Positions 2-49 of a stretch of DNA of 316 bases are shown in pieces. The stretch is from Escherichia coli. GTDB lineage: Bacteria; Pseudomonadota; Gammaproteobacteria; Enterobacterales; Enterobacteriaceae. The stretch lies in the NCBI RefSeq assembly GCF_003334765.1, contig NZ_QOWT01000144.1; one strand, given 5' to 3'. Within the stretch, counting starts at the first letter, position 1. The number at the start of each line of letters is the position of its first letter. Below the pieces are notes generated by a model, which was not told where the DNA came from, ran no database searches, and saw only the letters and a list, made by a program, of their open reading frames with translations. A program made the translations under genes and the position numbers.

Positions 2-49
2 GGATATTTCCCTGAAACTACATCCCTTGTTATGCAGGGCCATAACCTC
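2..49 (-). other. Putative helix-turn-helix DNA-binding motif, first half only, truncated by the window edge
   Basis: Residues EVMALHNKGCSFREIS fit the L-x3-G-x-S-x3-I-(A/S) spacing that, from memory, begins many transposase and resolvase type HTH domains. The predicted recognition helix would lie beyond + position 1, so this cannot be completed from the window. Confidence 0.3.

Follow-up and report, generated by a model that had tools for sequence, protein, structure and literature searches.

A motif at the edge of an Escherichia coli pseudogene fragment, and the probable IS21-like DNA-binding module nested in ISEc38-type transposases of the ISL3 family

The 316-base stretch of Escherichia coli DNA analysed here (the window) ends, when read on its minus strand, in a short pattern, L-x3-G-x-S-x3-I-S, and the question raised by the locus is whether this is the start of a genuine helix-turn-helix (HTH) and, if so, what sort of protein it serves. 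A sequence-only reading had taken it for a truncated HTH of the kind found at the termini of IS21- and IS630-type transposases and in serine resolvases, and had pointed to a strongly basic stretch immediately before it. The minus strand is one open frame of 105 codons (full translation RDRSGVYATAAREGAPQARQVADRWHLLKNIGDEPERMMYRYMPLIRLVVRELSLKKSPEPEISVPVASLRRLERLKQHIRKKRHQRWTEVMALHNKGCSFREIS) that terminates in ...RKKRHQRWTEVMALHNKGCSFREIS. The motif is real, in that MALHNKGCSFREIS ends the window peptide and is coded by window 43..2 on the minus strand (the range 2-49 includes the preceding EV), and the basic stretch was correctly described, RRLERLKQHIRKKRHQR (window 106..56) having nine Arg/Lys and two His in 17 residues. 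On the plus strand the only ORFs are short antisense ones, of 37 and 65 aa, which were considered as a feature and rejected; no promoter- or terminator-like sites were found in the window and an Rfam scan of it returned nothing better than E = 0.78, which is not a credible match. The motif very probably amounts to the opening helix and a half of HTH-1, the first unit of a bipartite DNA-binding module nested in an ISEc38-type DDE transposase of the ISL3 family.

The window belongs to an insertion sequence that is already known and catalogued. At the DNA level it is 94% identical to ISEc38 on a plasmid (locus L002), where the gene is an intact 539-codon ORF, and the NCBI name for the protein of the catalogued element is 'ISL3-like element ISEc38 family transposase'. 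Reports of ISEc38-type elements on resistance plasmids of E. coli are routine and, in the resistance-genomics literature searched, ISEc38 figures only within mobile-element inventories. The intact transposase (WP_072003777.1) scores 374.3 bits on NCBIfam NF033550 (transpos_ISL3) over residues 31-535, the whole-protein cutoff of that profile being 180 bits, and the window fragment by itself matches transpos_ISL3 at E = 1.3e-13 (50.8 bits), as expected for a fragment. Pfam places Zn_ribbon_ISL3 at residues 40-84 of the intact protein (E = 1.1e-5) and the DDE triad consists of D163, D213 and E508; in the 29 aligned sequences both aspartates are invariant and the glutamate is present in at least 90%. 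The zinc ribbon and most of the catalytic domain lie outside the window and were read from L002 and from a chromosomal locus, L001. The plasmid element (L002 1794-3515) measures 1722 bp between its inverted repeats, with a single 1620-bp transposase gene, and the 1722 bp given by its GG...CC boundaries is also the length of one 1722-bp contig. A search for full-length homologues was uninformative about diversity, the matches listed being close ISEc38 copies, all at least 82% identical. The features of the window, all on the minus strand, are as follows.

2..316, minus strand: codons 212-316 of an ISEc38-type ISL3 family transposase pseudogene; open frame, 100% identical to L001 3001-3316
311..313, minus strand: codon of Asp213, the second D of the catalytic DDE triad, within the motif SRDR; unchanged in all 29 aligned sequences
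158..247, minus strand: long helix, residues 235-264, after the conserved ADRWHLLKN; from the AlphaFold model and Pfam
104..157, minus strand: linker, residues 265-282, entering the predicted nested module; poorly conserved, pLDDT below 50 at residues 271-277
56..106, minus strand: basic stretch RRLERLKQHIRKKRHQR, residues 282-298; N-terminal portion of the long helix that opens predicted HTH-1
2..49, minus strand: motif EVMALHNKGCSFREIS; end of helix 1, turn with Gly309 and first five residues of helix 2 of predicted HTH-1
8-26, minus strand: one arm of a 19-nt inverted repeat, its partner lying outside the window; L002 2791-2809 / 2870-2888

In the AlphaFold model D213 stands at the end of strand 209-212, and helix 235-264 closes the first half of the ISL3 catalytic domain (the first half of Pfam DDE_Tnp_ISL3 being residues 160-295); all 29 aligned sequences have D234, H237 and N241. 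The linker of residues 265-282 is probably flexible. Its length and sequence vary across the long-form relatives in that alignment, and it carries the densest amino-acid changes between the pseudogene and ISEc38. Within the basic stretch, 25 of the 27 module sequences have Arg at residue 292 and 26 have it at residue 295; in the motif itself G309 never varies, and V302, L305 and I315 are each kept in 25 or more of the 27. The motif segment aligns to residues 10-24 of the IS21 transposase IstA, and the recognition helix, RVTVSRWVRS (residues 323-332), falls beyond the window. The 19-nt inverted repeat is imperfect (79% complementary, 60 nt apart) and brackets the coding sequence of HTH-1; an RNA or DNA structure at the motif was considered, but with a fold z of -1.76 and 9 of 200 shuffles folding equally well it was put aside as probably due to chance.

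An important consideration is the condition of the copy from which the window comes. The window is 100% identical to chromosomal loci of many E. coli strains, with a match in 2,950 of 5,426 complete E. coli genomes, mostly as one chromosomal copy each, and the same search gave 3,841 E. coli places; the L001 copy lies at 2368-3987, corresponding to NZ_CP025851.1 647629-649248. In all three strains examined the gene at the window-identical locus is annotated 'ISL3 family transposase, internal stop', and the context is the same in the three: zinc-ribbon genes, the transposase gene, a gamma-glutamyltransferase fragment and then php. Inovirus Gp2-family and zinc-ribbon genes flank the pseudogene on one side, with the gamma-glutamyltransferase fragment and php on the other. 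The single conserved site, shared by so many genomes, suggests an old insertion that is now decaying and that may have truncated ggt. In-frame stops occur at codons 113, 345 and 460 of the chromosomal copy, none of the three inside the window. Compared with ISEc38 the copy has 82 base differences in 1,620, with 46 nonsynonymous and 31 synonymous codon changes in addition to the three nonsense mutations. The locus is a fixed chromosomal pseudogene and nothing functions there, because three nonsense mutations break the gene and make a full-length protein impossible; the intact, translatable gene required of an active element is absent from the window-identical locus. Since the window's copy is a pseudogene, whatever DNA binding is deduced below applies to its intact relatives and not to the locus itself.

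The bases past window position 1, read from the 100%-identical genomic locus, encode RITGLSRVTVSRW, and the frame continues across the edge as ...FREIS-RITGLSRVTVSRWVGSGTFPEM.... The remainder of helix 2 and the recognition helix are coded there, and the recognition helix predicted from the window, G-V-S-x-x-T-V-x-R-(W/Y), is found as G-L-S-R-V-T-V-S-R-W, differing only in V to L. A Pfam search of the extended protein (a 65-residue segment) gave HTH_7 at E = 3e-5 and HTH_38 at E = 9e-5, with HTH_29 and HTH_23 also matching. The NCBIfam matches to the intact protein include the N-termini of IS630, IS21 and IS1 transposases, and the best family matches overall are those that had been named, the IS21, IS630 and resolvase types. 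Structure prediction of the extended protein yielded three helices (283-307, 312-319 and 323-332) at pLDDT above 90. The original interpretation is therefore supported, with two corrections: the HTH had been placed at a protein terminus but is in fact mid-protein, nested in the DDE catalytic domain, and the copy in hand is a pseudogene.

The position of the module is best seen from the way in which profile collections divide the protein. In Pfam, DDE_Tnp_ISL3 matches in two halves, residues 160-295 (model 1-135) and 413-534 (model 116-240), and the HTH matches, at residues 293-338, occupy the gap between them; the nested module as a whole, HTH-1, extended linker and HTH-2, spans approximately residues 283-393, between D213 and E508. 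PHROGs gives a similar two-part picture, an ISL3-type family covering residues 9-248 and the N-terminus of a different transposase family covering 298-401. In the two canonical ISL3 transposases examined, 155 residues separate the second D from the E and the nested module is absent; in 19 long-form proteins the separation is 295-343 residues. When long forms and canonical ISL3 proteins were aligned with MAFFT, the helical region of the short forms was spread out over the insert, and motif-to-motif distances were used for the comparison instead.

What the module resembles is the N-terminal region of IS21 transposases. NCBIfam transpos_IS21 matches residues 303-398 to profile positions 2-104 at E = 1.6e-16, and a phmmer search of the PDB aligned residues 302-398 to residues 10-107 of IstA (8b4h/8q4d) at E = 2e-10. 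When a profile of the module was built from 27 diverse relatives, the match to IstA residues 10-105 reached E = 1.3e-25, the next solved natural proteins being resolvases (Tn3, gamma-delta) at E = 5e-4 to 4e-3. The likeness to IS21 stops at the module: the whole-protein score is 60.7 bits against a cutoff of 160 for NF033546, with profile positions 2-104 of 294 alone being matched, and the ISEc38 transposase has a catalytic domain of ISL3 type and not of IS21 type. Taken individually, all 27 relatives match HTH_7 at E <= 0.1 (19 of them at E <= 0.001) and 26 match HTH_23; weak precomputed matches of such proteins to HTH_7 and HTH_23 were already present in public tables.

An AlphaFold2 model of the full-length protein, made on the long-form family alignment, has a mean pLDDT of 90.3 and a pTM of 0.71. 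It runs from RNase H-type strands through the long helix 235-264 into a disordered linker (pLDDT below 50 at 271-277), followed by HTH-1 (helices 283-307, 312-319 and 323-332, the first of these at pLDDT 92-97), an extended linker of residues 333-348, HTH-2 (helices 349-360, 366-375 and 382-393), a second weak linker and the helical remainder of the catalytic domain. When the module was modelled alone the same six helices were obtained at pLDDT 90.1, and thus two three-helix bundles appear in both models. A Foldseek search with the module model ranked the chains of IstA highest (E = 2.4e-5 to 1.2e-3); next came the paired domain of Pax6 and the bipartite domain of Tc3, both of which are DNA binders of the HTH-linker-HTH kind. 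With the whole model (m1c41426c0f2a) the best matches were the IS256-family ISCth4 and the hAT transposase Hermes, then the P element transposase; IstA aligned to the whole model over about 100 columns at 3.9 Å rmsd. A sequence search of the PDB found no solved ISL3-family transposase, IstA alone being matched, by way of the insert. The model also has a three-helix unit at residues 108-147, besides the N-terminal zinc ribbon.

The extent to which this architecture is shared was established by an exhaustive search of 1.84 billion representatives, clustered at 50% identity, with the 104-residue module. Matches were found in 237 clusters at E <= 1e-10 and in 2,510 at E <= 0.001, and many of the best clusters are proteins of 530-580 aa matched over approximately residues 295-410 at 35-45% identity. 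An alignment of 28 representatives with ISEc38 (29 sequences in all, overall identity to ISEc38 33-41%) showed that the long-form relatives keep the zinc-ribbon cysteines, D163, D213, E508 and the nested module, the consensus of which is V..LH.QG.S.RAIAR..GL.R.TVRR...A..FPE...LDP...YL..RW..GC.NA..LWRE....GF.GS...VRR, with G309, G362, G377 and G380 invariant. Long-form members are present in several phyla. With tblastn the module was found in ISL3-annotated genes on Streptomyces and Roseibium plasmids and, at 27-29% identity, where annotated istA genes begin. A homologue search with the insert only gave just fragments of at most 250 aa, mostly pieces of pseudogenes, and these carried no information on architecture.

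A number of other observations were made in the course of the search for relatives. In one representative (P0244, alignment columns approximately 410-480) the linker and HTH-2 are tandemly duplicated, SILDPYK.Y...C.AGCWNG.QLY.EI.ALGF.GSQP occurring twice. A relative of the module, at 70.6% protein identity, occurs in more than 1,000 plasmid records from Klebsiella (e.g. NZ_CP024551.1 39041-39346), often at a near-identical coordinate and, in most of the rows shown, with no gene listed there; this is probably a conserved pseudogene of an ISL3 long form on a common plasmid backbone. In NZ_CP102842.1 (L004 1542-3239) a gene for a canonical short ISL3 transposase has an in-frame stop, after which the sequence in the same frame (...YIPKADGKQRPLGIASLEDKIVQ...) is, by eye, what we take to resemble a group II intron reverse transcriptase, which suggests insertion of an intron where the transposase gene has its 3' end.

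The terminal inverted repeats of ISL3 elements are generally about 15-40 bp in length and begin with GG. Those of ISEc38 read GG(T/C)TCTTCCGCAAC(T/C)TGGGTGGA, and three distant long-form members (L007, L008 and L009) have repeats of 23-27 nt that start GGCTCTTCCGCAC. The coordinates, all outside the window, are given below together with those of a further pair of conserved sequences.

L002 1794-1816 and 3493-3515: terminal inverted repeats of ISEc38
L007 77-99 and 1792-1814: terminal repeats
L008 55-81 and 1796-1822: terminal repeats
L009 46-68 and 2009-2031: terminal repeats
L002 1773-1793 and 3516-3536; L001 approximately 2272-2292 and 4027-4047: outer 21-bp flanks

The ends of the long-form elements are alike, GGCTCTTCCGCACTTTATGTGAC, GGCTCTTACGCACTTTGGGTGG and GGGTTCTTCCGCACTTTGTGTGG being comparable to GGYTCTTCCGCAACYTGGGTGGA of ISEc38. 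The repeat consensus, GGCTCTTCCGCACTTTG.GTGG, is near-identical among them although the transposases concerned are only 33-38% identical to that of ISEc38, and conservation of this order is unusually strong. Such ends fit a conserved protein-DNA interface, without specifying which domain does the reading.

The flanks of ISEc38 present a curiosity of their own. The 21 bp outside the GG...CC repeats are conserved between the chromosomal and the plasmid ISEc38, which have different neighbours, and are inverted relative to one another (TGTCAACGACGGATGAAAAGT / ACTTTTGCACTGTTCGTGACA), giving ISEc38 copies TGTCA...TGACA tips. Alignments of independent plasmid copies begin at L002:1773 and mostly end at 3536-3539, a subgroup ending at 3521. 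Neither the L001 nor the L002 copy is flanked by matching 8-bp direct repeats of the kind that target duplication by ISL3 elements leaves; the 21-bp inverted flanks are common to both. The outer 21 bp may belong to a longer mobile unit or represent a preferred palindromic target. It was also considered that an additional outer box might be read by the extra HTH tandem, but this was rejected for the family as a whole, L007-L009 having plain 23-27-nt repeats from GG.

What the module does in an intact element can be approached through IstA. In that protein HTH-1 (residues 1-39) and HTH-2 (residues 55-104) are joined by a linker that binds the minor groove. Each terminal repeat is recognised in two places, its CS2 box by HTH-1 and its CS1 box by HTH-2; four residues, R31, K32, T92 and K95, are situated in the major groove, and integration falls when they are mutated (PMC10122671). 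Two of these four named DNA-contact positions are conserved in the module: Arg occupies the position of R31 (R323) in 26 of 27 sequences and that of K95 (R386) in 19. The position equivalent to T92 is Ser/Thr in 15 of the 27 and that equivalent to K32 is variable. By homology and by analogy with IstA, then, we infer that the module binds DNA in intact elements. Its most likely partner there would be the terminal inverted repeats of the element itself, and the module would add a second unit for end recognition and synapsis to the canonical N-terminal zinc ribbon plus HTH.

It may well be asked whether end reading is the main job of the module at all. An IS21-like tandem could be real and yet serve chiefly to link subunits within the synaptic complex, to capture target DNA or to repress the promoter of the element itself, and within tetrameric IstA the lower subunits do contact HTH-2 and the DDE domains of other subunits extensively through their HTH-1 (PMC10122671), which would suit an architectural role. 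The zinc ribbon and the three-helix unit at 108-147 could suffice for end recognition, and the variability at the K32 position also favours a job other than end reading. Against this stand the conservation of R323 and R386, the counterparts of base readers in IstA, and the very similar terminal repeats of elements whose transposases are only 33-38% identical to that of ISEc38, even if those repeats do not specify the domain that reads them. A main role other than end reading is accordingly considered unlikely, though it is by some way the most serious of the alternatives.

Two further explanations concern the reality of the architecture and of the motif. The best matches of the module are IS21-family transposases and the window's copy is a decayed pseudogene, from which it could be supposed that a fragment of IS21 was inserted into, or assembled beside, an ISL3 transposase gene. 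Yet intact 539-aa ORFs of the same architecture occur in hundreds of records, and dozens of representatives at 33-41% identity to ISEc38 carry the module at the same position in one continuous frame. The IS21 profile is matched at 2-104 of its 294 positions with no IS21 catalytic domain, the 1722-bp element is too small for istB, and the whole-protein model is confident (pLDDT 90.3). The long-form alignment, the spacing and the two-part picture from PHROGs therefore exclude a chimera or artefact, which is regarded as highly improbable. Less probable still, to the point of being negligible, is that L-x3-G-x-S-x3-I-S is a chance pattern and the segment no HTH. The sequence-only reading had itself raised this point, and for the window by itself the caution was sound, no distinction being possible: a Pfam scan of the 105-residue window peptide returns DDE_Tnp_ISL3 alone and, with the threshold relaxed to E <= 10, still no HTH family. 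With the neighbouring sequence included, chance is refuted by the Pfam HTH matches on the extension, by HTH_7 in all 27 relatives, by the profile match to IstA (of the order of E = 1e-25), by the three-helix unit in both models and by IstA being the best fold match.

The nested IS21-like module thus remains the preferred reading, and its wider meaning can be offered only tentatively. It is possible, though somewhat doubtful, that a large, phylum-spanning branch of long-form ISL3 transposases captured an IS21-type end-binding module inside the catalytic domain and so gained a second DNA-reading head, which would act in end recognition, synapsis or target choice. The literature searched, the coverage of which was incomplete, contained no description of an IS21-type bipartite module nested in an ISL3 catalytic domain. 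Taken by itself, the window feature is an ordinary piece of a transposase whose domain arrangement is mildly unusual; the wider point is one of domain shuffling between transposase families, the tandem of IS21 IstA being found inside ISL3-type enzymes. If the module does read ends, the IstA structures would provide a template for modelling end recognition and pairing in the long-form ISL3 elements.

The known systems with which the ISEc38 transposase may be compared differ in what they share with it. With the ISL3 elements generally (NF033550; PF14690 Zn_ribbon_ISL3 and PF01610 DDE_Tnp_ISL3) it has in common the zinc ribbon, the DDE triad, the motifs ADRWHLLKN and NGxxEGxxNRLK, and terminal repeats beginning GGCTCTTCC. 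Compared with the two canonical ISL3 transposases the long forms have, inserted, a flexible linker and the IS21-like HTH-1/linker/HTH-2, and it is because of this insertion that the second D and the E are further apart. ISCth4 (PDB 6xg8) and Hermes (PDB 8sjd/2bw3), which Foldseek ranked first for the whole protein (E = 4e-5 to 5e-3), are DDE transposases whose RNase H fold contains an all-helical insertion domain; in them too, helices interrupt the catalytic fold between the second D and the E, but identity is approximately 10%, TM-scores are 0.2-0.3, their DNA-binding domains are other ones and a bipartite HTH in the insertion region is reported here for neither. In the serine resolvases and invertases the resemblance is confined to HTH-1 and the preceding basic segment, for which HTH_7 (PF02796) is the top Pfam match at E = 3e-5; the similarity is at the level of fold and motif only, the matches are far weaker than those to IstA, and no resolvase catalytic family was among the Pfam or NCBIfam matches. 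The closest relative of the module is IstA of IS5376 (PDB 8b4h, 8q4d). The two differ in that the tandem of IstA is N-terminal whereas that of ISEc38 is mid-protein in another catalytic domain, and ISEc38 is without an IS21-type catalytic domain, without the IstB ATPase partner (there being no istB, the gene for the AAA+ helper ATPase, downstream, and a single gene between the inverted repeats) and without the multiple terminal repeats of IS21 style at its ends. What they share is homology over IstA residues 10-105, at 25-39% identity to long-form members, with two three-helix units, an extended linker rich in Pro, Arg and Lys, and Arg where IstA has R31 and K95.
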